Shown: piece by piece, positions 4,719 to 38,400 of the stretch
How the letters are laid out: every line of letters starts with the position of its first letter
How positions within the stretch are numbered: position 1 is the stretch's first letter
NCBI GenBank assembly: GCA_035547195.1
Contig: DASZVB010000009.1
Coordinates: 2,122-66,121 of the forward strand
Direction: 5' to 3'
Origin: Polyangiaceae bacterium
GTDB taxonomy: Bacteria > Myxococcota_A > Polyangia > Polyangiales > Polyangiaceae
Length of the DNA: 64,000 bases
Program-made: the position numbers and the translations under genes
The notes under the pieces: generated by a model
Databases searched by the model: none
Told to the model about the DNA's origin: nothing
What the model saw: the letters and a program-made list of their open reading frames with translations, nothing else

Positions 4719-6236
4719 CTACGGAGCGCCGCCGTCAGCGCCGCCGGAGGTGATGCACGTCCGCGCGTCGTCGACGCATTGACGAACCTGACCACCGCCG
4801 TTGACACATTTGACGAGCTCCTCGAAGCACGCCTGAGCGGCGGGTATCGAGGGGCGCGGCGGAACGTGGACGCCGGGGAGTCCGCTCGGCAAAGGCGGGA
4901 GTCCGCTCGGCAAAGGCGGCAGACCCGACGGCAACCCGCTCGGCAAGGGCGGCAGACCCGACGGCAATCCGCTCGGCAGCGGCGGTAGCCCAGACGGCAA
5001 CCCGCTCAGCAAGGGCGGTAGCCCAGACGGCAAACCCGTCGGCAGCGGCGGGAGGCCCGACGGCAATCCGCTCGGCAGCGGCGGTAGACCCGACGGCAAT
5101 CCGCCCGGCAGCGACGGGAAGCCCGACGGCAAGCCGCTCGGCAGCGGCGGCAAGCCATTCGGCAATCCGCCGAGCATCGGAGGTAGCCCCTGCGGGAGCG
5201 AGGGCAGGCCCGACGGCAAGCCACTCGGCAGCGGCGGCATCACCGGGAGTCCCGACGGCAGCGACGGAAGTCCGTGGTTGCCCATCTGGATCTGCGGGAA
5301 GCCGGGCAGCGAATGCGAGCCTGACGGGAGTCCACTCGGCAGCGGCGGCAGACCCGACGGCAAGCCACTCGGCAGCGGCGGCAACCCGCTCGGCAACGGC
5401 GGCAAGCCGCTCGGAAGCCCGCTCGGCAGCGGTGGCAGACCCGACGGCAAGCCACTCGGCAGCGGCGGCAGACCCGAGGGCAATCCGCCCGGTAGCGATG
5501 GGAAGCCCGAGGGCAATCCACTCGGCAGCGGCGGCAAGCCCGAGGGCAACCCGCTCGGAATCGGCGGCAAACCGGAAGGAAGCCCCGTCGGCAAAGGCGG
5601 TAGCCCGGACGGCAAACCCGTGGGCAGCGGCGGCAAACCCGACGGCAATCCGCTCGGCAGCGGCGGCAAGCCCGACGGCAAGCCGCCCGGAATCGGCGGG
5701 AGCCCGCTCGGCAGCGGCGGCAACCCGCTCGGCAAACCCGACGGCAATCCGCTCGGCGTCGGCGGCGTGGGCAGCGAGACGCCGGCGTCCGCGGCGACGT
5801 TGCCGAGGCACTCGCGCAGCGCGGCTTCACACTGCGCGCCCTGCGTCGGCGCGCAATGCGCTCGCGTGTCGAAGCAAGCGTTGAGCGCCTTGATCAGCGC
5901 CTCCGCGCTCGCTTGCGCGGCTTGCACGCAGCTCTGTTCCTGCTTGTCGCACGCGGCGAATTTCGTGGTGTCGCCCGCGGCGCTGCGACGGCACGTCGCC
6001 GCGTCGTCGGCGCACGTTCGCGCGCTCGACGCGAACGAGGTGTACGCCTGCTGCACCGACTCGACGCTGGGGTCGACGGCAACGGCGGGCGATCCGACGG
6101 GTGCGCCGGGCGCGCTGCCTTGCACCGCCGAGCCGGTGTCCGAACCGCTGCTGCAACCTGCGGCGATGCCCAGCGCGACGCCGATGCAACCGCCGATCCC
6201 AATTGCCAGAAATTTACCCTCGCGAATTCTCATCAC
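4719..6236 (-). CDS. Lipoprotein with Cys-rich helical end domains and a ~300-aa (G)LPSGLPPLPS repeat core
   Basis: 505-aa ORF. MMRIREGKFLAIGIGGCIGVALGIAAGCSS is a signal peptide plus lipobox. The N-terminal domain has paired Cys (CADDAATC, ACDKQEQSC, CFDTRAHC...C...C). The central part is an 11-residue proline-rich repeat. The C-terminal domain is Cys-rich (ACFEELVKC...QCVDDARTC). Confidence 0.8.
   Translation of the reverse strand: MMRIREGKFLAIGIGGCIGVALGIAAGCSSGSDTGSAVQGSAPGAPVGSPAVAVDPSVESVQQAYTSFASSARTCADDAATCRRSAAGDTTKFAACDKQEQSCVQAAQASAEALIKALNACFDTRAHCAPTQGAQCEAALRECLGNVAADAGVSLPTPPTPSGLPSGLPSGLPPLPSGLPPIPGGLPSGLPPLPSGLPSGLPPLPTGLPSGLPPLPTGLPSGLPPIPSGLPSGLPPLPSGLPSGFPSLPGGLPSGLPPLPSGLPSGLPPLPSGLPSGLPPLPSGLPPLPSGLPSGLPPLPSGLPSGSHSLPGFPQIQMGNHGLPSLPSGLPVMPPLPSGLPSGLPSLPQGLPPMLGGLPNGLPPLPSGLPSGFPSLPGGLPSGLPPLPSGLPSGLPPLPTGLPSGLPPLLSGLPSGLPPLPSGLPSGLPPLPSGLPSGLPPLPSGLPPLPSGLPGVHVPPRPSIPAAQACFEELVKCVNGGGQVRQCVDDARTCITSGGADGGAP
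4875..5774 (-). repeat. In-frame 33-bp tandem repeat array (about 27 units, some 21-bp variants)
   Basis: On the + strand the unit cagacccgacggcaa(g/t/c)ccgctcggcagcggcgg recurs head to tail with point differences. It is interrupted once near 5230-5330 by a unique segment (GSHSLPGFPQIQMGNHGLPS). It lies entirely inside CDS 4719..6236. Confidence 0.9.
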
Positions 6237-6330
6237 ATGCTCCTACAGGGGTGCGCCGGCCGTACTGGGTCCACCCGCGCGGCGGAGCGATCATCCCGCT
6301 GGTATTTTTTTGGTATTTTGCACCGTCGGA

Positions 6331-6357
6331 GAAACTTTCCGTCTCTGGGAGATCTCT
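6331..6357 (+). promoter_or_regulatory. Candidate ECF-type promoter upstream of the sigma gene
   Basis: GAAACTT (6331-6337), a 15-nt spacer, then TCTCT (6353-6357), about 50 nt upstream of the ATG at 6409. This resembles the GGAACTT-N16-TCTxA pattern of RpoE-like ECF promoters. Motif match by eye only. Confidence 0.25.
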
Positions 6358-6408
6358 CACGAAAGTGATCGGTCCGCGGCTCTGCTAGACACATCTCCTT
6401 AGAGAAAG

Positions 6409-7038
6409 ATGTCGCGCTGGGCCGCCGCTCCACCCTTCATGACGCCGAAGGTCGACGCGGAGGACTGCCAGGGGCTCCTTGCGCTCGCGCAGCGCGCGGC
6501 GAACGGGGACGACGGCGCGGCGCGCGAGCTGTTGCAAGCGGTCGCGCCGGCCATGCACCGCGCGATCGTCGGCGTGCTCGGGACGAACCACGCGGAAATC
6601 GACGACGTCTCGCAAGAGTCGATGATCGGCTTCTTGCGGGCCCTCGGCGCGTTCCGCGGCGAATGTCATCCGGCGGGCTACGCCGCGCGCATCGCGCTGC
6701 ACACCGCGCTGCGCGCGCGAAGAAGGGCGAAGCTCGAGCGCACGCGCACCGACGAAATCGCGCGGCTCTCGCCCGAAGAGCCGTCGCTGCCGGCGGCGGA
6801 ACCGAGCGCGGAACGGCGCCGCAACGCGCTTCGAGGCTTGCTCGAAGACCTGCCGCCCGAGCAGGCGGAGACGCTCGCTCTCCGCGTCGTCCTCGGATGG
6901 AGCCTCGAAGAAGTCGCGATCGCGACGGGGGCGCCGATCAACACCGTGCGCAGCCGCGTGCGGCTCGCGAAAGAAGCGCTGCGCCGCCGCCTCGAAGAAG
7001 ACCCGCGTCTCGTCGAGGAGCTGGAGGTCGAGTCGTGA
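6409..7038 (+). CDS. ECF (sigma-70 family, group 4) RNA polymerase sigma factor
   Basis: 209 aa. The region-2-like segment is DDVSQESMIGFLRALGAFRGE...YAARIALHTAL. The region-4 HTH is LPPEQAETLALRVVLGWSLEEVAIATGAPINTVRSRVRLAKEALRRRL. Confidence 0.9.
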   Translation: MSRWAAAPPFMTPKVDAEDCQGLLALAQRAANGDDGAARELLQAVAPAMHRAIVGVLGTNHAEIDDVSQESMIGFLRALGAFRGECHPAGYAARIALHTALRARRRAKLERTRTDEIARLSPEEPSLPAAEPSAERRRNALRGLLEDLPPEQAETLALRVVLGWSLEEVAIATGAPINTVRSRVRLAKEALRRRLEEDPRLVEELEVES

Positions 7039-7937
7039 GCGTCGTCGACCTTCACCCCGAAGATCTGCTCGACAAGGCCGTGCACGGAGCGCTGACCGAC
7101 GCCGAGCGGGCGCGGCTCGATGCCCACGTCGCCACCTGCGCGGTGTGCCGCTTCGAGCTCATGGCGCGAGACGACTTCGCGGCGCTCGCCGAGCCACGCG
7201 CGCGAGCTCCGCGCGTCGAAGCGCCGCTCGCGCCCCCGGCGCCCGAGCTCGTCGCGCGCGGCGCGGGGCGATCGCGCCGGCGCGGGCTCGTCGTGGGTCT
7301 GGCCGCGGCGCTCGTCGGAGGGATGAGCTTCGCGGCGCTGTCCGCCGGGCTCGTGCCGTTCCCGCGAGAGAAACCCGCGCCGAACGCGGAGCGCGCGACG
7401 GCCGTCGTTTCCGCGCGCGCCGCTGCCGTCCGCGCCGTCGATGCGCCCGCGCCGCCCGCTCCATCTTCGGGCGACGAGCCCGTTCGCGCCGACGCGCCGT
7501 CGGTGAACACGCGCCTCGAGAAAGAGCGCACGTCTCCGCGCGCGCGGGGACATGGCGTGCCCGCTGCGGCGGAGCTGTTCAGCGCGGCGAACGGAGCGCG
7601 GCGATCTCACGACGTCGAGCGCGCGATCTCGCTGTACCGTGAGCTCGAGTCGCGCTATCCGCAGTCGGAGGAGGCGCGGGTCTCGTACGCGACGCTCGCG
7701 ACGCTCTTGCTCGACCGCGGCGACGCGCGCGACGCGCTCGACGGATTCGACCGGTATCTCTCCCGTGGAGGCAGCGCGCTCGGCGAAGAAGCGCTCGTGG
7801 GCCGCGCGCTCGCGTTCCAGAAGCTCGGCGCGGAGGACAACGAGCTCGCCGCGTGGCGAGAAGTGCTGCGCCGGTTCCCCGGATCGGTGCACGCGGCCGT
7901 TGCGAGGGCGCGGCTCGCCGCCTTGGGCCAGCGGTGA
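7035..7937 (+). CDS. Anti-sigma factor (zf-HC2 N-terminus, one TM helix, TPR-like periplasmic part)
   Basis: The GTG at 7035 overlaps the sigma stop (GTGA) and is in frame with track ORF 6663..7937. HVATCAVC fits the H-x3-C-x2-C anti-sigma zinc motif. LVVGLAAALVGGMSFAALSAGLV is the TM helix. The C-terminus (YRELESRYPQSEEARVSYATLATLLLDRGDARDAL...) is TPR-like. Confidence 0.8.
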   Translation: MSVVDLHPEDLLDKAVHGALTDAERARLDAHVATCAVCRFELMARDDFAALAEPRARAPRVEAPLAPPAPELVARGAGRSRRRGLVVGLAAALVGGMSFAALSAGLVPFPREKPAPNAERATAVVSARAAAVRAVDAPAPPAPSSGDEPVRADAPSVNTRLEKERTSPRARGHGVPAAAELFSAANGARRSHDVERAISLYRELESRYPQSEEARVSYATLATLLLDRGDARDALDGFDRYLSRGGSALGEEALVGRALAFQKLGAEDNELAAWREVLRRFPGSVHAAVARARLAALGQR

Positions 7938-9187
7938 TCCGGGCGGCGGCGTTCGCGTTGGCGACGACCCTCTGCGTGCTCGCGCGCTCCGCCGTCGCCG
8001 ACGACCGGCGCGCCCCGTCGCTCGTGCACGTCTACGTCGCGGGGCCGCCGGAGGCCGTCCTGCGTACCCGCGCGACGGTGCGCGAGCTGCTCGCGCGCAT
8101 CCAGGTCGACGCCGTCGTGGAGCCCGCGTCCGACGAGGCCGTCCTCGCCGAGCCCGCGCCGGACGGCGTGGCGCGGGCGTTCCTCGATTTTCGTTCGCTC
8201 GCCGGAACACGCGTCGCCCTGGCGCCGAGCGGCCCGGATCACGACATCGTGCGACGAACATTGCCCGCTTCTTCGCTCGAGGTGTCGGTCGAAGAAGCGG
8301 CACACATCGTCTACGCCGCGGTCGAAGCGTCGAGAGACGCGAGCACTCGCCCCGCCGCCGCGGGCAGCGGCGCGAGCGAATCCCCCGCGACCGGTGAAGC
8401 GCCGCCGGCGACATCCGCTCCGCCGCCCGGCGCCTCTTCGGACGCCACCGGTACCGGAGCCGGGAGTGTGTCTCCCTCGCCGCCGCCGAAAACGACGTCT
8501 TTGGCGCCGGCGGCGCAAGTCGTCCCGGCGCCGCAGCAAAACGCGGAGAGCCGCGCCGGCGCGAACGGCGAAGATCACGGTCCCCCGAAAACGGCGCACG
8601 CGGGAAGCTCCGCTCTCGTGTTCGACGCGGCCGTGTCCGTATTCGGAGGCATGTCGTCGTACGGAGGCGACGCGGTGCTTCCCGGCGTCGGCGGCGCCCT
8701 GGACGTCCGCTTCGGGAGCGCGTCGCTGCGACCCGGTGCCATGCTCTCCGCCGGCGTGTTCTTTCCGAGCAGCGTCTCGAGCGGAGACGTGGGCGGCTCG
8801 CTGCGCGCCGAGTCGCTGCGGCTGCTCGGGCTCGTCGAATGGACGCCTTCGCCGCGATTCGGATTCGCTCTCGCCGCGGGCGGCGGCGCGGATCACGTCA
8901 CGTTCGACCCGGGTGCGTCCAGCGCGGTCGTCGTTTCCGAAGGCGCGGCCTCGCGCTACGACCCGGCCCTGCAAGGGCTGGTGTCCGCCCGCTTACGGTT
9001 CTCCAGCGCGTTCGGCGTGTTCGCGCTCGCGGCCGCCGACGTCGACCTCACGCCTCACCGTTACGTCACCGAGACCCTCGGGGACGCGACCCCGTTCTTC
9101 GCGTTGCCTCGCGTTCGCCCGACCGCGCTCGCCGGCGTGACTTACGTGTTCCACGAAGGACACCGACCCGCGGAGCCGTCGCGATGA
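7934..9187 (+). CDS. Secreted protein with probable C-terminal outer-membrane beta-barrel
   Basis: The GTG at 7934 overlaps the preceding stop (GTGA). VIRAAAFALATTLCVLARSAVA is a signal peptide. A Pro/Ser/Ala linker follows. The last ~190 aa show alternating hydrophobic/small residues and end ...ALAGVTYVF close to the C-terminus. Confidence 0.65.
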   Translation: MIRAAAFALATTLCVLARSAVADDRRAPSLVHVYVAGPPEAVLRTRATVRELLARIQVDAVVEPASDEAVLAEPAPDGVARAFLDFRSLAGTRVALAPSGPDHDIVRRTLPASSLEVSVEEAAHIVYAAVEASRDASTRPAAAGSGASESPATGEAPPATSAPPPGASSDATGTGAGSVSPSPPPKTTSLAPAAQVVPAPQQNAESRAGANGEDHGPPKTAHAGSSALVFDAAVSVFGGMSSYGGDAVLPGVGGALDVRFGSASLRPGAMLSAGVFFPSSVSSGDVGGSLRAESLRLLGLVEWTPSPRFGFALAAGGGADHVTFDPGASSAVVVSEGAASRYDPALQGLVSARLRFSSAFGVFALAAADVDLTPHRYVTETLGDATPFFALPRVRPTALAGVTYVFHEGHRPAEPSR

Positions 9188-10077
9188 CGTTCCCCGCCGC
9201 GTGCGGACGCACGCGCCTTCACGGGTGGCTCGCGCTGGCTACGCTGCTCGCAGGCTGCGCCGCCGACGACATCGTCGTGTATCGAGGTCGCGCCACGCAC
9301 ACGGCGCCCGACGAGGCCGGCGGCCTTCCCGTGGAGGACGCGAGCCCGGCCGAACATGGCAACGGCGGCACGACGCACGCCAGCACGGGCGGCGCGACAT
9401 CGCACATGACCGCGGGCACGGGCGGCAGCGTCGAACCGATGCACCCCCTACCTCCGCCCATGATGGCGGGCGCGGGCGGCGGCGGAGGGGGCTCCGGCGG
9501 CAGGCAAGAGTCTGCGGGCGGCGCGACCGGTGCCGGCGGTGCGTTCCCCATCGGCCTGGGCGGCATCCCGAATCTGCCGCAGCTCACCTGCACGACCGTC
9601 GCCGACTGCCCCACCAACTTCATGTGCGCGAAGATCGACTGCTCCCAGCAAATGGGGTTCTGCCAGCCGCGGCCCGTCATCTGTCCGGACCTCTCCCCGG
9701 TGCCGGTGTGCGGTTGCGACGGTGTCACGTACTGGAACGACTGCATCCGCCAGCAAAACGGCGTCGCCGCGAGTACGCTCAATCAGTGCACGATCAACGC
9801 CGCCACGTGCACGACTTCGGCCGACTGCAAAGTCCCGGGAGCTTCGTGCGCGAGGCTGAACCCCGTCGGCGGTATGGAATCGTGCGCAGCGCCGGGCCTC
9901 GGCGCGTGCTGGGTCGTGCCGTCGGACTGCGCGACGACGCCTGCCGCAGAGATGTGGGTCCCGTGCCAGGGGATGAACCCGGCGCCGACGCAGCGCCCCT
10001 CCTGCGTCGGCACGTGCGACGCGATTCAATCCGAGCAGCAGCACGTCGCGGGGACGCCGGGGCAGATGTGCCGCTGA
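9184..10077 (+). CDS. Cys-rich lipoprotein with a Kazal-like domain
   Basis: The ATG at 9184 overlaps the preceding stop (ATGA). LATLLAGC is a lipobox. A Gly-rich linker follows. CPDLSPVPVCGCDGVTYWNDCIRQQNGVAASTLNQC (9682-9789) fits the Kazal core PVCG-x-DG-x-TY-x-N-x-C. There are also two CTTxADC modules. Confidence 0.75.
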   Translation: MTFPAACGRTRLHGWLALATLLAGCAADDIVVYRGRATHTAPDEAGGLPVEDASPAEHGNGGTTHASTGGATSHMTAGTGGSVEPMHPLPPPMMAGAGGGGGGSGGRQESAGGATGAGGAFPIGLGGIPNLPQLTCTTVADCPTNFMCAKIDCSQQMGFCQPRPVICPDLSPVPVCGCDGVTYWNDCIRQQNGVAASTLNQCTINAATCTTSADCKVPGASCARLNPVGGMESCAAPGLGACWVVPSDCATTPAAEMWVPCQGMNPAPTQRPSCVGTCDAIQSEQQHVAGTPGQMCR

Positions 10078-10151
10078 CGAGTTTCCCGGGTGCAGCCGGG
10101 GATGCGTTCAGCTCGACCCAGCTTGCTCGGCTCCGCTCGAGCGCCGTCGCT

Positions 10152-10724
10152 TCAACGGTCGACCTCGAGCTCGACGCCCGCATATAGCTCGTCCACGGCG
10201 AAACGCGCGGGGGGCGTCGCCAATATGATCTCTTCGCCGGACCGGATTTCTCTCTGGCTCCATCCATCAGGCGTCCGTTCGACGAGCGTGACTTGGGGAC
10301 GTCGATGGGAGACGAACATCACGACCTCGAGACTTGGAAGCTGCTTGTAGTTCGCGAGCTTCTCGCCGCGATCGTAGTCCTCGGTCGAATCGCTCGTCAC
10401 TTCGAGCAGCAAGGTAGGGTTGACGATCGCGTTGGGATCCTTCGGCGATACCCGCCGCTCGCCGCACACGACAGTGGCGTCCGGGAAAGTGGACAGATCG
10501 GTGGCCTCCACCCGAACCTTGAGATCCGACGACGAGACGCGGCAGCGGCCGACGAGCGAGTTGCCGAGGAGGCGAATCGCGGCGGCGGCGAGATCGGCGT
10601 GCGCCGGTGTTCCGCCTGCCCTCGCGTAAATTTCTCCGTCACAGTACTCGAGCTTCACGCCGCTCACGTCTAGCGCGCGGAGGTAATCTTCGTAGCGGTG
10701 ATGAACGCGCCGGGCAGTGCTCAC
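10152..10724 (-). CDS. Uma2-family (DUF820) putative endonuclease
   Basis: The C-terminal 190 aa of track ORF 10152..11063 read RVHHRYEDYLRALDVSGVKLEYCDGEIY...SSDLKVRV...PDATVVCGE...NPTLLLEVTSDSTEDYDRGEKLANYKQLPSLEVVMFV. This is the typical Uma2 layout and length. I choose the GTG at 10724; the ATG at 10865 is the alternative. Confidence 0.8.
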   Translation of the reverse strand: MSTARRVHHRYEDYLRALDVSGVKLEYCDGEIYARAGGTPAHADLAAAAIRLLGNSLVGRCRVSSSDLKVRVEATDLSTFPDATVVCGERRVSPKDPNAIVNPTLLLEVTSDSTEDYDRGEKLANYKQLPSLEVVMFVSHRRPQVTLVERTPDGWSQREIRSGEEIILATPPARFAVDELYAGVELEVDR

Positions 10725-35455: not shown

Positions 35456-38400
35456 TCACACGGTGATGAAGCCGAACGCGTCGAGACCGCGCTCGCCGAT
35501 CACCCGGCCAAGCGCCTCGAAGACGTCCGTGGCGCCGACGAGCGCGAGCCCCGACTCGATCTCCAGGATGAGCCCGCCGACGATCTTACCGTCGGCCGGG
35601 CTCTGTAGAGCCACGAGACGACAACCGGCGGCCGTGGCGGCGGGCGCGAACATCCGCTCCCGACTCCCCGGCGTCGTACGCTGGCTCGCGCCGTCGACCG
35701 CGACGTCCAGCCAGCGGGCGAGCTCTTCGACCGAAGACGCCGGCGGCTCGTCGTTCGTGCTCGACCAGGCGAGGCGCAGCTCGCCCCCTTTCGAGACATA
35801 TAGATAGGCGCTCTTCGCCTTCGTCTTTCGCATCACGAAGTCGACCGCTACTTCGAAGGGCTCGTCGGAGTGGCTCAGGATCTCGTCCACCCGGAGCGGC
35901 CCCTGGCCCGACGAGAACCGGGGTTCGGCGATGGTCGCCGCGTCGGATGAAGCGAACGGCGAGGTCCGGAAGGCCGACACGGTGGCCCCGAACGAGTGAT
36001 GGTGCTCCCGAGCGGCGGACAGCGCCGCGCTGCTGCGGCTCGCGCGCTCGCAGCGAGCGACGAGCAACGGATTTTTCGTCCTGCGAAAGCAGCTCTCCAT
36101 TTCCGCGCGCTGCACCATCGCCGTGACGACGTCCTTTGCGCCCTCGGCGACTTGAGCCCGCGCTTCGTGCAGGAGGCCGACGAGCAGCGCGTTGCTCTGG
36201 CCGCCGTGCTCGGCGAGCAGCTCGTCCAAGAGAGCTGCCGCGCGATCGTGATTTCCGAGCCCGGATTCGGCGAGCGCGAGCTGCCGGCGCGCCTCCAGGA
36301 AACGAACGACGTAGCCGTCGTCTGCCGGGACCATGTTCGCCACGACCTCTTCGGCGATCGCCTTGGCGCGTTCGTACTCGCCGGCGGCGTTGAGCGCCCT
36401 GGCGAAGTACGCGCGGTTCGTCTCCCAACCGACTCGCCGGCGGCAGGGAAAGCTCGGCATCAGCCGCTCGTACAGAGAGATCGCCCCGGCCAGATCCCCG
36501 CGGAGCATCAAGTACGCCGCGCGCGCCGCTTCGGCCTGAGGCTTCAGGACCGCGACTTCCTGAGCGCGGCGCTCGAGCTGGACGTAGCGCCGGCGCGCGC
36601 CGATGGAGTCTCCGGTGAGCACGTCGGCGTTCAAGAGCAGCGCAGGCCAGAACACCTCGGCTTGCCAGGTCTGAGCGCCCTGGACGACGTCCTGCTCGAC
36701 GCGCTCCATGTACGTCTTCACCTCCGCCGACTCCCCGCGGAGCGCGTGATAGAGCATCCGAACCTGGTCGGCCGTGACGGCCCAGGCCTTCACTCCCAGG
36801 CTTTCCATGTGACGCGCCTCTTCGAGTGCTCGGTCGCCGAAGTGATAGCAGTCCAAGAGCCGGAGCATGAAGAGCACGCCGCCGCGAAGCGCGCGCGTGC
36901 GCGCCTCGCCGGCGCCCTCGACGACGGCGGGGTCCTCGAAGCGCGAGAGCGCGCGTTCCCAGACCGCGCGCGACTCGCTCTCGTTGCCGAGGACGTTCGC
37001 CTCGGCCACGGCGAACAGGTACATCGCGTGCGCCACGTGCTCCTCGCCGAAGAACGTGATCGGCGTGATCGCGCGGACGACACGGGCCACGGCGTCGGCG
37101 TCGAAACACGTCGCGTAGACGGCCACGCACGCCGGCACCATGCCGATGGTCGCGGCGAGCGCCGTCCTCGAGTCGTAACCGATGGCGTCCGCGGCGTGCT
37201 CCGCGAAACCCTTCGCACCGAAGGCGAGACCGCGCTTCAACGCTTCTCGACGGCCGAGCTCCGGCGCAAGCTCCGCGGCGCGCGCAAGGCCGGTGATGCG
37301 GATCCCGATCTCGATGGCCCGCTCGCCGTATTCGAGCATGAACTGCCAGTTTCCCGAATAGTACGCGAGCGGCATCAACGGAAAGAGCAGCGCTCCGAGC
37401 TCGTAATCCGACCGACCTTGCTCGTCGTACGCGCGCACCAGCCGGCACAGCGCGCGCACGAGACGGTCCGCGTTGCGATGCGTACCCGCGCCCGCGGCGA
37501 AATCGCGAGCCGCGCCGACGAGTATGCGCGCCCCGAGCTGCTCTTCTCCGGCGTTCACCAGATGAAGCGCGGCCTCGACCCGCTCGACCACGCCGCTCGC
37601 CTCCGATTCGAGCAGGGCTTCCGCCGCGCGTAGCCGGTTCTTCCGGAGCACATCGGGATCGGTCCGCGACAGGACGGCCTCGCGGATGGCGTCGTGACGG
37701 AAGCGGTACCCGTCGCCTTCGCTCACCAGCACCTGCTCGGCGAGCAGCTCGTCGAGAGCCGCGTGGGTGCGTCCTTCGCCGGCGAGCTCGCTCAGCGAAA
37801 GGATGCGCGCGAGCGATACGGCGCCGGAGTGGACCGCCAGGCTCTCCGCCAGCGCGATCGCGTCGGGACCGAGATCCGACAGCCGCGCGGCGAGGATTTC
37901 CTCGGAGCGAGCGGGGAGCTCGTCTTCGGCGACGTCGAGCGGCAAGACCCAGCTGCCGGCCTCGTACTTCGCGATCTTTCGCTTCACCATGAGCTGCGCG
38001 AGCTCGATGAACTGGCGTGGAACTCCGCCGCTGCGCTGCCACAAGAGGCTCCCGACGCGCCCGGCGTTGGCGGCTCCTCCGAAGAGTCCGTTCGAGAGCT
38101 GCTCGCAGGCGTTCGCGTCGAGGCTCGGAAGCTTCAGGCGCTGCGCCTGTTCTCGAAGCATTCGCACCGTCTCCGGCGCGGTCACGCTCGCCCCCGTCCG
38201 CAGCGTCGTGAGCACGAGCAAGCGCGAAGCGCGGCTCCTTTGCCCGAGAGCGAGGAGAAACGACGCCGAGTCGTCGTCGGCCGCGTGGACGTTGTCCACC
38301 CATATGAACATCGCCCGCTCGCGGCTCGCCGCGAGGAACCACTCTCGGAGCGCCGCGTGGGCTCGAACTCGGTCGTCGCCGGCGTCGCTCGGTTGCACGC

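Follow-up and report, generated by a model that had tools for sequence, protein, structure and literature searches.

We analysed a 64,000-nucleotide window of contig DASZVB010000009.1 from the Polyangiaceae bacterium assembly GCA_035547195.1, in which four consecutive genes encode an extracytoplasmic function (ECF) sigma factor, an anti-sigma factor, a predicted outer membrane barrel protein (P3) and a lipoprotein with a Kazal-like core (P4). We hold, with slightly better than even confidence, that positions 6365-10077 form a self-activating operon for a signalling unit that spans both membranes and belongs to a large family in the Polyangia. By analogy with described systems, the module would most likely act as a TonB-independent trans-envelope switch of a Fec-like or "split Dma" type, and we infer its mechanism on that basis. 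A relay from the outer to the inner membrane had been offered as one possible role in the first-pass annotation of this DNA, and it remains the best reading. ECF sigma/anti-sigma envelope signalling is of a known kind, while what is apparently new here is an outer membrane partner family without a description, together with a Kazal-fold lipoprotein. The literature that we searched contained no paper linking an ECF system with a Kazal protein and none describing the P3 barrel family, in agreement with the earlier remark that no described ECF group was known to have such a set of partners.

Gene order and overlaps were read directly from the window sequence at 6100-10400 and the list of open reading frames (ORFs), and all four genes lie on the + strand. 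The sigma factor (6409..7038, 209 aa) starts with ATG, the anti-sigma factor (7035..7937, 300 aa) and P3 (7934..9187, 417 aa) start with GTG, and the lipoprotein P4 (9184..10077, 297 aa) starts with ATG. Each stop codon overlaps the following start by 4 nt, as GTGA at 7035-7038, GTGA at 7934-7937 and ATGA at 9184-9187, at exactly the positions first annotated. These three overlaps, which are conserved in relatives, uphold the proposal of a single translationally coupled operon, and the sequence indicates that 6365-10077 is one operon. A fixed stoichiometry had also been deduced from the overlaps, but coupling is evidence of co-expression and not of stoichiometry. Our consensus scan across 6100-10500 detected no sigma-70-like promoter, and the terminator-like hairpins in the same range were weak (5 versus 2.1 expected), with 4 of the 5 on the opposite strand. 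The public sequencing runs containing the region were soil DNA metagenomes, plus one run of unknown type. This run (X6, 2019) contained two 151-nt contigs that matched the 5' portion of P4 (window 9164-9475) at 99-100% identity and no other sequence of the operon, and was uninformative on operon structure.

Judged from gene neighbourhoods, the sigma factor, the anti-sigma factor and P3 are the conserved core of the switch, and the Kazal-like P4 is a fourth-gene variant of one sigma subclade. We place the core at the triad because it is recovered whether one searches with P3 or with the anti-sigma factor, while P4 is confined to one subclade. The full four-gene order, mostly with -4 overlaps, was found by tblastn at 7 loci within the family to which the window belongs, including a paralog on contig C94, three same-genus genomes and two other genera; gene junctions at the own-family loci were -4, occasionally -1 or -8. 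A search from P4 added about 18 further distinct full-module loci in named public genomes, also mostly with -4 junctions and labelled Polyangiaceae, Polyangiales, Polyangia, 'Myxococcales', Labilithrix (partial) and, in one case, a 'Myxococcaceae' metagenome-assembled genome. Overlaps were retained in the 7 + 20 loci examined. Among the 20 best P3 loci from 151 genomes of the class, 17 had a sigma factor and a TPR anti-sigma factor in the same locus, mostly adjacent, and none had a P4 homolog. When 41 relatives were searched with the anti-sigma factor, all eight strong matches with enough contig had sigma upstream and P3 downstream (a ninth, at a contig edge, was left out of this count). Four distant loci (L109, L131, L132, L134) showed the order P3-sigma-X-anti-sigma with the three genes still together, and the anti-sigma factor and the barrel were separate genes in all loci examined. 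That P3 stays with sigma and anti-sigma through such rearrangements argues for a role of P3 in the switch. A tree of the sigma factors placed 21 of the 24 P4-linked sequences in one clade (support 98/92) with the other three just outside, and the non-P4 triads formed the sister group; the P4 label requires two changes on this tree. Synteny of all four genes in relatives, on which the first-pass annotation had made its proposal depend, is conserved in this clade, but P4 is not linked as closely as the triad.

Profile scores confirmed the first two genes as a sigma factor and a zf-HC2 anti-sigma factor. The sigma factor passed the Pfam cut-offs for Sigma70_r2 (PF04542, 35.0 versus 24) and Sigma70_r4_2 (PF08281, 44.8 versus 25.7) and that of NCBIfam TIGR02937 (65.9 bits versus 42.9), and also matched Pfam Sigma70_ECF. 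With sigma2 and sigma4 as its only regions it is a member of the ECF (group 4) sigma-70 factors. It reached no NCBIfam equivalog or subfamily model, the best giving 71 bits against a cut-off of 204. The anti-sigma factor passed zf-HC2 (PF13490, 28.1 versus 22.2) and also matched TPR_6 and TPR_14 in Pfam. It carries an N-terminal zf-HC2/ZAS motif, H31-x3-C35-x2-C38 (nt 7125-7148), a single hydrophobic span (about residues 84-106, nt 7284-7352) and, after an Ala/Pro-rich linker, a C-terminal TPR domain (about residues 178-297, nt 7566-7925). H31, C35 and C38 (HxxxCxxC) were kept in 7 of 7 orthologs, and this zinc motif together with the 4-nt overlap with the sigma gene places the protein among the ZAS, or zf-HC2 class I, anti-sigma factors. 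Class I ZAS anti-sigma factors sequester their sigma factor, as is established for the family. The TPR domain is the part most conserved between the two anti-sigma paralogs of this genome (55% over residues 178-286), and it gave weak matches of BamD/YbgF type, below the cut-offs of Pfam and NCBIfam. The main text of PMC7826278 gives no matching ECF group description.

For P3, the signal peptide and probable C-terminal beta-barrel proposed at first were supported by an AlphaFold2 model, built with a 25-sequence alignment (A2), and by Foldseek. The model had a mean predicted local distance difference test score (pLDDT) of 79.7, with the N-terminal domain and the barrel mostly above 90. A signal peptide (residues 1-23) is followed by an alpha/beta N-domain of the order beta-alpha-beta-alpha-beta-beta-beta-alpha (residues 29-138, nt 8018-8347), a Pro-rich tether predicted to be disordered (residues 139-228, nt 8348-8617, pLDDT about 45-55) and a small outer membrane beta-barrel (residues 230-407, nt 8621-9154). 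Foldseek matches in the PDB were to OmpA-TM, Ail, NspA, OmpW, OmpX and the OprF barrel, with E values of 5e-8 to 2e-4 and a template modelling (TM) score on the target of about 0.6. With a barrel of about 180 residues, the P3 model falls into the class of small outer membrane protein barrels (OmpA-TM, OmpX or OmpW; 8-10 strands, Sec signal peptide). P3 had no match in Pfam or NCBIfam, its relatives likewise had none in Pfam (25 members including P3), and a sequence-profile search of the PDB returned nothing (best E 0.5). The family is large: an exhaustive HMMER search gave 1,870 cluster representatives in metagenomes, 418 of them at E <= 1e-30, nearly all of 330-440 aa and aligned end to end. 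The P3 profile also matched 43 of the 151 genomes sampled across class Polyangia, with four to five copies in some.

P4 stands as a Kazal-like lipoprotein on the evidence of its lipobox, its family profile and a fold superposition. The lipobox LLAGC ends in Cys25 (nt 9256-9258) and opens into the segment CAADDIVVYR (residues 25-34, nt 9256-9285), a post-Cys tag that is conserved across the P4 family. A Gly/Ala-rich tether, predicted to be disordered (pLDDT below 50), extends to about residue 133 and leads to a Cys-rich domain with 20 cysteines (residues 134-297, nt 9583-10074, pLDDT about 80-95), within which the family profile and superposition on 3pis place a Kazal-like core (residues 160-202, 9661..9789). 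Sixteen of the 20 cysteines and the stretch PVCGCDGVTYWNDC were invariant across 26-31 relatives (alignments A1 and A3). As a single sequence P4 fell below the Pfam cut-offs for Kazal_1 (PF00050, 20.3 versus 21) and Kazal_2 (PF07648, 19.9 versus 22.8), and some members of its family carry precomputed PF07648 or PF00050 matches. The family profile matched Kazal inhibitors in the PDB, including leech tryptase inhibitor (1an1/1ldt, E 2.7e-7), ovomucoid and PSTI, with E values ranging to 1e-4. The modelled core superposed on the non-classical Kazal domain 3pis with a TM score of 0.73-0.77 and a root-mean-square deviation of 1.6 A, and the whole domain gave weak Foldseek matches to follistatin (E 1.5e-3). 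The core keeps the pattern PVCG-x-DG-x-TY-x-N-x-C and the Cys2-Cys4 and Cys3-Cys6 positions, and a small disulfide hairpin precedes it as in follistatin (FS) domains. It differs from classical Kazal proteins in being bacterial, lipid-anchored and set inside a 20-Cys domain. When the family consensus is aligned to the leech inhibitor by HMMER, Val and Gln stand where that inhibitor has Cys1 and Cys5. An additional invariant cysteine (Cys178) comes after Cys3, and some members lack Cys2. At the P1-equivalent position (C2+2) P4 has Asp169, and its relatives have Asp, Gly, Ala or Ser or, frequently, Pro. What is conserved in the family is the core scaffold with its flanking disulfide modules and not the reactive loop, which fits P4 as a binding domain, and the core would appear to be a binding module rather than a canonical protease inhibitor.

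The tag follows the family pattern C-x-x-[D/E/R]-[D/E]-[I/V/L]-x-V-[Y/F/A/V] and covers 8-10 residues after the lipidated cysteine, while the tether that follows it could not be aligned and varies from about 10 to 110 residues across the family. In the AlphaFold2 model the tag segment was of low confidence, as expected of a strand that needs a partner. A regular-expression search of the genome for the tag returned P4 as the sole plausible lipoprotein and two further matches without lipobox context, and it missed the CDGRDVVVF of the paralog. The large lipoproteins of same-genus triads without P4 have a similar post-Cys motif (CGSDSHVLAKR, CGDDGHVVARAR; compared with CAADDIVVYRGR in P4), and the remaining fourth-gene lipoproteins resembled the tag only loosely. 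These comparisons suggest that the tag may be a docking or address element for the module.

Upstream of the sigma gene, the candidate for an autoregulated ECF promoter is a -35-like box, GTGATCGGT (6365..6373, + strand), with the consensus GTGATCG[G/C]TT. Of the 26 module loci, 22 have this box at 37-48 nt 5' of the predicted start of the sigma gene; for L020 and L026 the distance was taken from a start codon that lies about 30 nt 3' of the called one. The nearly constant distance between box and start implies a very short or absent leader. One-base variants occur in the paralog L012, in the form ATGATCCGTTT, and in L015, and the sister triads carry TTGATCG.. or TGGTCCGTTT variants of the box. 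Across the four same-genus upstream regions TGATCGGT and TAGACACA were each invariant (4 of 4), and a candidate -10-like element, CTAGACACA (6385..6393, + strand), ends 15 nt before the ATG, a position that would leave little or no leader. The first-pass annotation had instead suggested GAAACTT-N15-TCTCT (6331..6357, + strand) as the autoregulated promoter. This motif is literally present but not conserved, with only scattered identities in the alignment of the four same-genus upstream regions and nothing corresponding in more distant loci, and we favour the GTGATCG(G/C)TT box in its place. A scan of the genome for both boxes gave a mismatch-free match only at the operon's own site. Three regulon candidates (C75:9722, C92:46387 and C94:132648) were inspected and found unconvincing, and a motif match at window position 37057 lies inside long ORFs.

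The module recalls the FecI-FecR-FecA system in several respects. Its order of sigma factor, anti-sigma factor and outer membrane protein is that of fecI-fecR-fecA, it combines an ECF sigma factor with a single-pass anti-sigma factor that would carry a periplasmic partner-binding domain, autoregulation is expected, and in P3 an N-terminal periplasmic domain precedes the barrel. However, the anti-sigma factor has no FecR (PF04773) match at E <= 1 and has zf-HC2 and TPR domains instead, the sigma factor reached no FecI-type NCBIfam model among its top matches, P3 and its 24 relatives lack STN, Plug and TonB-dependent receptor domains, and the barrel of P3 is modelled with about 8-10 strands rather than 22 and gives no sign of TonB dependence. 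Truncated-receptor variants of Fec-type systems exist, for example VreA-VreI-VreR of Pseudomonas. A second parallel is offered by the Dma factors, which join an anti-sigma domain, a transmembrane helix, a disordered tether and an 8-strand outer membrane barrel in one chain, are paired with an ECF sigma factor, are proposed to use the barrel as a sensor of the outer membrane or of the cell exterior, and were reported as restricted to Bacteroidota (PMC10927553). P3 likewise sets a small barrel on a long disordered periplasmic region (139-228) next to an ECF sigma factor. The module differs from Dma in dividing these parts between two proteins, with the anti-sigma factor ending at 7937 in its TPR domain and P3 having its own signal peptide and globular N-domain, in its phylum (Myxococcota), and in the lack of sequence similarity between P3 and OMP_b-brl_2. 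The RpoE-ChrR (ECF11-like) systems share the HxxxCxxC zinc motif, and the TGATCG box resembles the -35 part of their TGATCC-N16-CGTA consensus (PMC5507510). In contrast, ChrR is soluble with a cupin C-domain while the anti-sigma factor of the module is membrane-bound with TPR repeats, and the -10 region of the module reads GACAC, CGATA or CCAC and not CGTA.

From these parallels we propose the following scheme. The anti-sigma factor would hold the sigma factor at the inner membrane. Its TPR domain and the N-domain of P3, each carried on a long Pro/Ala-rich tether from opposite membranes, would meet in the periplasm, where docking of the one on the other would let the two proteins together bridge the compartment. 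The lipoprotein may be recruited to P3 through its N-terminal tag and would supply an exchangeable head domain, here a Kazal-fold binding module. Ligand binding at the outer membrane, or a disturbance of the envelope, would break or alter the bridge, upon which the anti-sigma factor would be degraded and the sigma factor released. From the TGATCG promoter the free sigma factor would then drive transcription of the operon that encodes it, so that more of each of the four proteins is made.

Several observations weigh against this scheme. The AlphaFold2 models are of single chains, and the proposed contacts between TPR and N-domain and between tag and P3 are our own deductions; transcription of the operon, its transcription start site and its autoregulation are likewise deduced from the DNA. 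The Foldseek matches of P3 were dominated by the barrel and gave no separate fold for the N-domain. Other clades have CGATA or CCAC near the -10 position with similar but not identical spacing, and since the -10 candidate differs between clades in both sequence and spacing, the -35-like box is the only promoter element that we regard as solid. In roughly half of the triads without P4 no lipoprotein was seen downstream, and a lipoprotein is therefore not obligatory. Three motif scans of the 8.76-Mb assembly, which were possibly too crude, found no convincing other target promoter. Either the regulon is the operon alone or the scan was too crude, and the first of these would fit an output role at least as well as that of a sensor.

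Such an output role is the basis of one alternative, which we consider unlikely without dismissing it. Here the sigma/anti-sigma pair would sense alone through the TPR domain, and P3 and P4 would be dedicated envelope products made on demand, with P3 anchoring or exporting the tagged lipoprotein at the outer membrane and P4 serving as a protective binder or inhibitor at the surface or in the periplasm. The lack of further promoter matches in the genome, by which the operon would possibly be the whole regulon, is in keeping with this account, as are the change of the fourth gene from clade to clade, expected of cargo, and the specificity of the tag to module lipoproteins. However, the retention of P3 with sigma and anti-sigma through changes of gene order and deep divergence is typical of signalling partners, coupling to the regulators gives P3 and P4 regulator-like expression levels, and a barrel of 8-10 strands is small for a protein exporter. 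Improbable in our estimate is a surveillance role like that of RcsF, in which the BAM complex would normally assemble P4 together with, or by way of, the P3 barrel, and a failure of outer membrane assembly, lipoprotein sorting or disulfide formation would let free P4 or the P3 N-domain reach the TPR domain of the anti-sigma factor and turn the sigma factor on. The RcsF/OMP/IgaA system is established as combining a tethered, disulfide-bonded lipoprotein, a small or medium barrel and an inner membrane regulator with a periplasmic domain, and the P4 lipobox, its tether of about 100 residues (pLDDT below 50), its 20 cysteines, the OmpA-like barrel of P3 and the weak BamD/YbgF-type matches of the TPR domain follow the same plan. 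This parallel is one of architecture by analogy: neither sequence nor fold relates the module to RcsF or IgaA, the output of the RcsF system is a phosphorelay and that of the module an ECF sigma factor, and the BamD-type matches stay below their cut-offs. Many triads moreover have no lipoprotein or one with few cysteines, which means that a Cys-rich lipoprotein cannot be essential to the core switch.

We give little chance to the reading of P4 as a true serine-protease inhibitor of Kazal type, which would neutralise extracellular proteases or report their presence, a role put forward in the first-pass annotation. The Kazal fold itself stood, through significant profile and fold matches to canonical and non-classical Kazal inhibitors and the Pfam Kazal thresholds passed by some family members, and myxobacteria live among secreted proteases. 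The protease role was weakened, since the P1-equivalent residue is not conserved and the positions of the canonical C1-C5 disulfide are not Cys, to which the extra cysteine after Cys3, the loss of Cys2 in some members and the lack of strong conservation in the reactive loop can be added. For most serine proteases, Asp, Gly, Ala, Pro and Ser rank with the poorest residues in the P1 series of the ovomucoid third domain. True Kazal inhibitors are likewise hypervariable in their contact residues, and the P1 variation is not decisive. Returning to the trans-envelope switch, we put forward a wider version of it only tentatively, as a possibility we would not bet on. The P3 family as a whole would serve TonB-independent envelope signalling in Myxococcota, with the barrel/N-domain protein docking on the TPR domain of a ZAS anti-sigma factor as a two-protein equivalent of Dma and with tagged lipoproteins as interchangeable sensor heads. 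The follistatin/Kazal-fold head found here would then recognise a protein ligand, possibly a foreign protease serving as bait instead of being inhibited.

ECF sigma/anti-sigma pairs are among the commonest signalling devices of bacteria, and how they receive signals from outside is mostly unexplained. The scale of the P3 family, with about 1,900 cluster representatives in metagenomes and presence in about a quarter of the sampled Polyangia genomes, gives the question some weight. If P3 is the outer membrane partner of the anti-sigma factor, a physical link from outer membrane to transcription would no longer be confined to Bacteroidota (Dma, 2024) and to the TonB-dependent Fec-type systems. 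The P4 lipoprotein would be among the few bacterial cases of a mostly eukaryotic fold with a defined genetic context. The four-gene cassette is compact and self-contained, which suits reconstitution, and exchangeable lipoprotein heads suggest a modular sensor design for synthetic biology.

The fourth gene varied considerably among triads. In at least 11 triads other than those with P4 it encoded a lipoprotein unrelated to P4, examples being proteins of about 800 aa in three same-genus genomes, a 676-aa protein with 103 cysteines and several Cys-containing proteins of 260-320 aa. In the three same-genus genomes (L125 5827-8184, L127 and L128; G003, G001 and G005) the triad is followed by a lipoprotein of about 790 aa with 17 cysteines, whose start, CG(S/D/Q)D(S/G)HV(L/V)A, resembles the post-Cys tag of P4. 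Pfam gave only a sub-threshold DUF5648 and a marginal PD40 match for the large downstream lipoproteins of the sister triads. At L106 (5456-7486) the 676-aa ORF with its 103 cysteines overlaps the end of the P3 homolog by 4 nt and is apparently a Cys-rich lipoprotein in the position of the fourth gene.

Some loci with the full module showed features of their own. The paralogous module of the same assembly (L012, contig C94 at about 134,520-138,040, - strand) is a second, diverged four-gene copy that keeps the 4-nt overlaps and has identities to the window of 52% for sigma, 55% for the anti-sigma TPR domain and 39% for P4 (49% in its C-domain). At L015, on the same contig as L021, a CTG occupies the position of the P3 GTG start at about 6775 in the oriented locus (CCCTGATCC versus GGTGATCC), and P3 may start there, with a rare CTG, or 81 nt further upstream, with a GTG. 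At L013 (G001:C76) a run of about 100 N, either masked sequence or a gap, interrupts the 3' end of the P4 ortholog and makes its C-terminus unreadable.

P4-like proteins also stand alone in unrelated contexts, and Planctomycetota and other phyla have tandem-repeat proteins that contain the Kazal core by itself. We looked for a consistent barrel partner of the stand-alone P4-like lipoproteins and saw no pattern, the neighbours at L039-L045, L050, L054, L085, L093 and L098 being unrelated; they included saccharopine dehydrogenase, cytochromes, Kelch, CcmB and one OmpA-family gene. The last of these is at L041 (3837-5105 and 5206-6453), where a P4-like gene lies directly 3' of the OmpA-family gene and 5' of a VanW-domain gene, the only stand-alone copy seen with an outer membrane protein as neighbour.

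A further lipoprotein gene lies divergent from sigma in the window (4719-6236, - strand) and shares with the sigma promoter an intergenic region of 170 bp. In its product two end domains with cysteines flank a long array of (G)LPSGLPPLPS repeats. These end domains recurred at the same position in two same-genus loci (L013 and L014) and not in distant module loci, and from this lack of distant conservation the gene looks like a neighbour by descent and not a part of the module. Three same-genus loci that also have the divergent lipoprotein gene show the conserved blocks GCGCCGGCCGTACTG, GAGCGATCA and GTAyTTTTT (window 6240-6320), and these blocks may be the control region of that gene.

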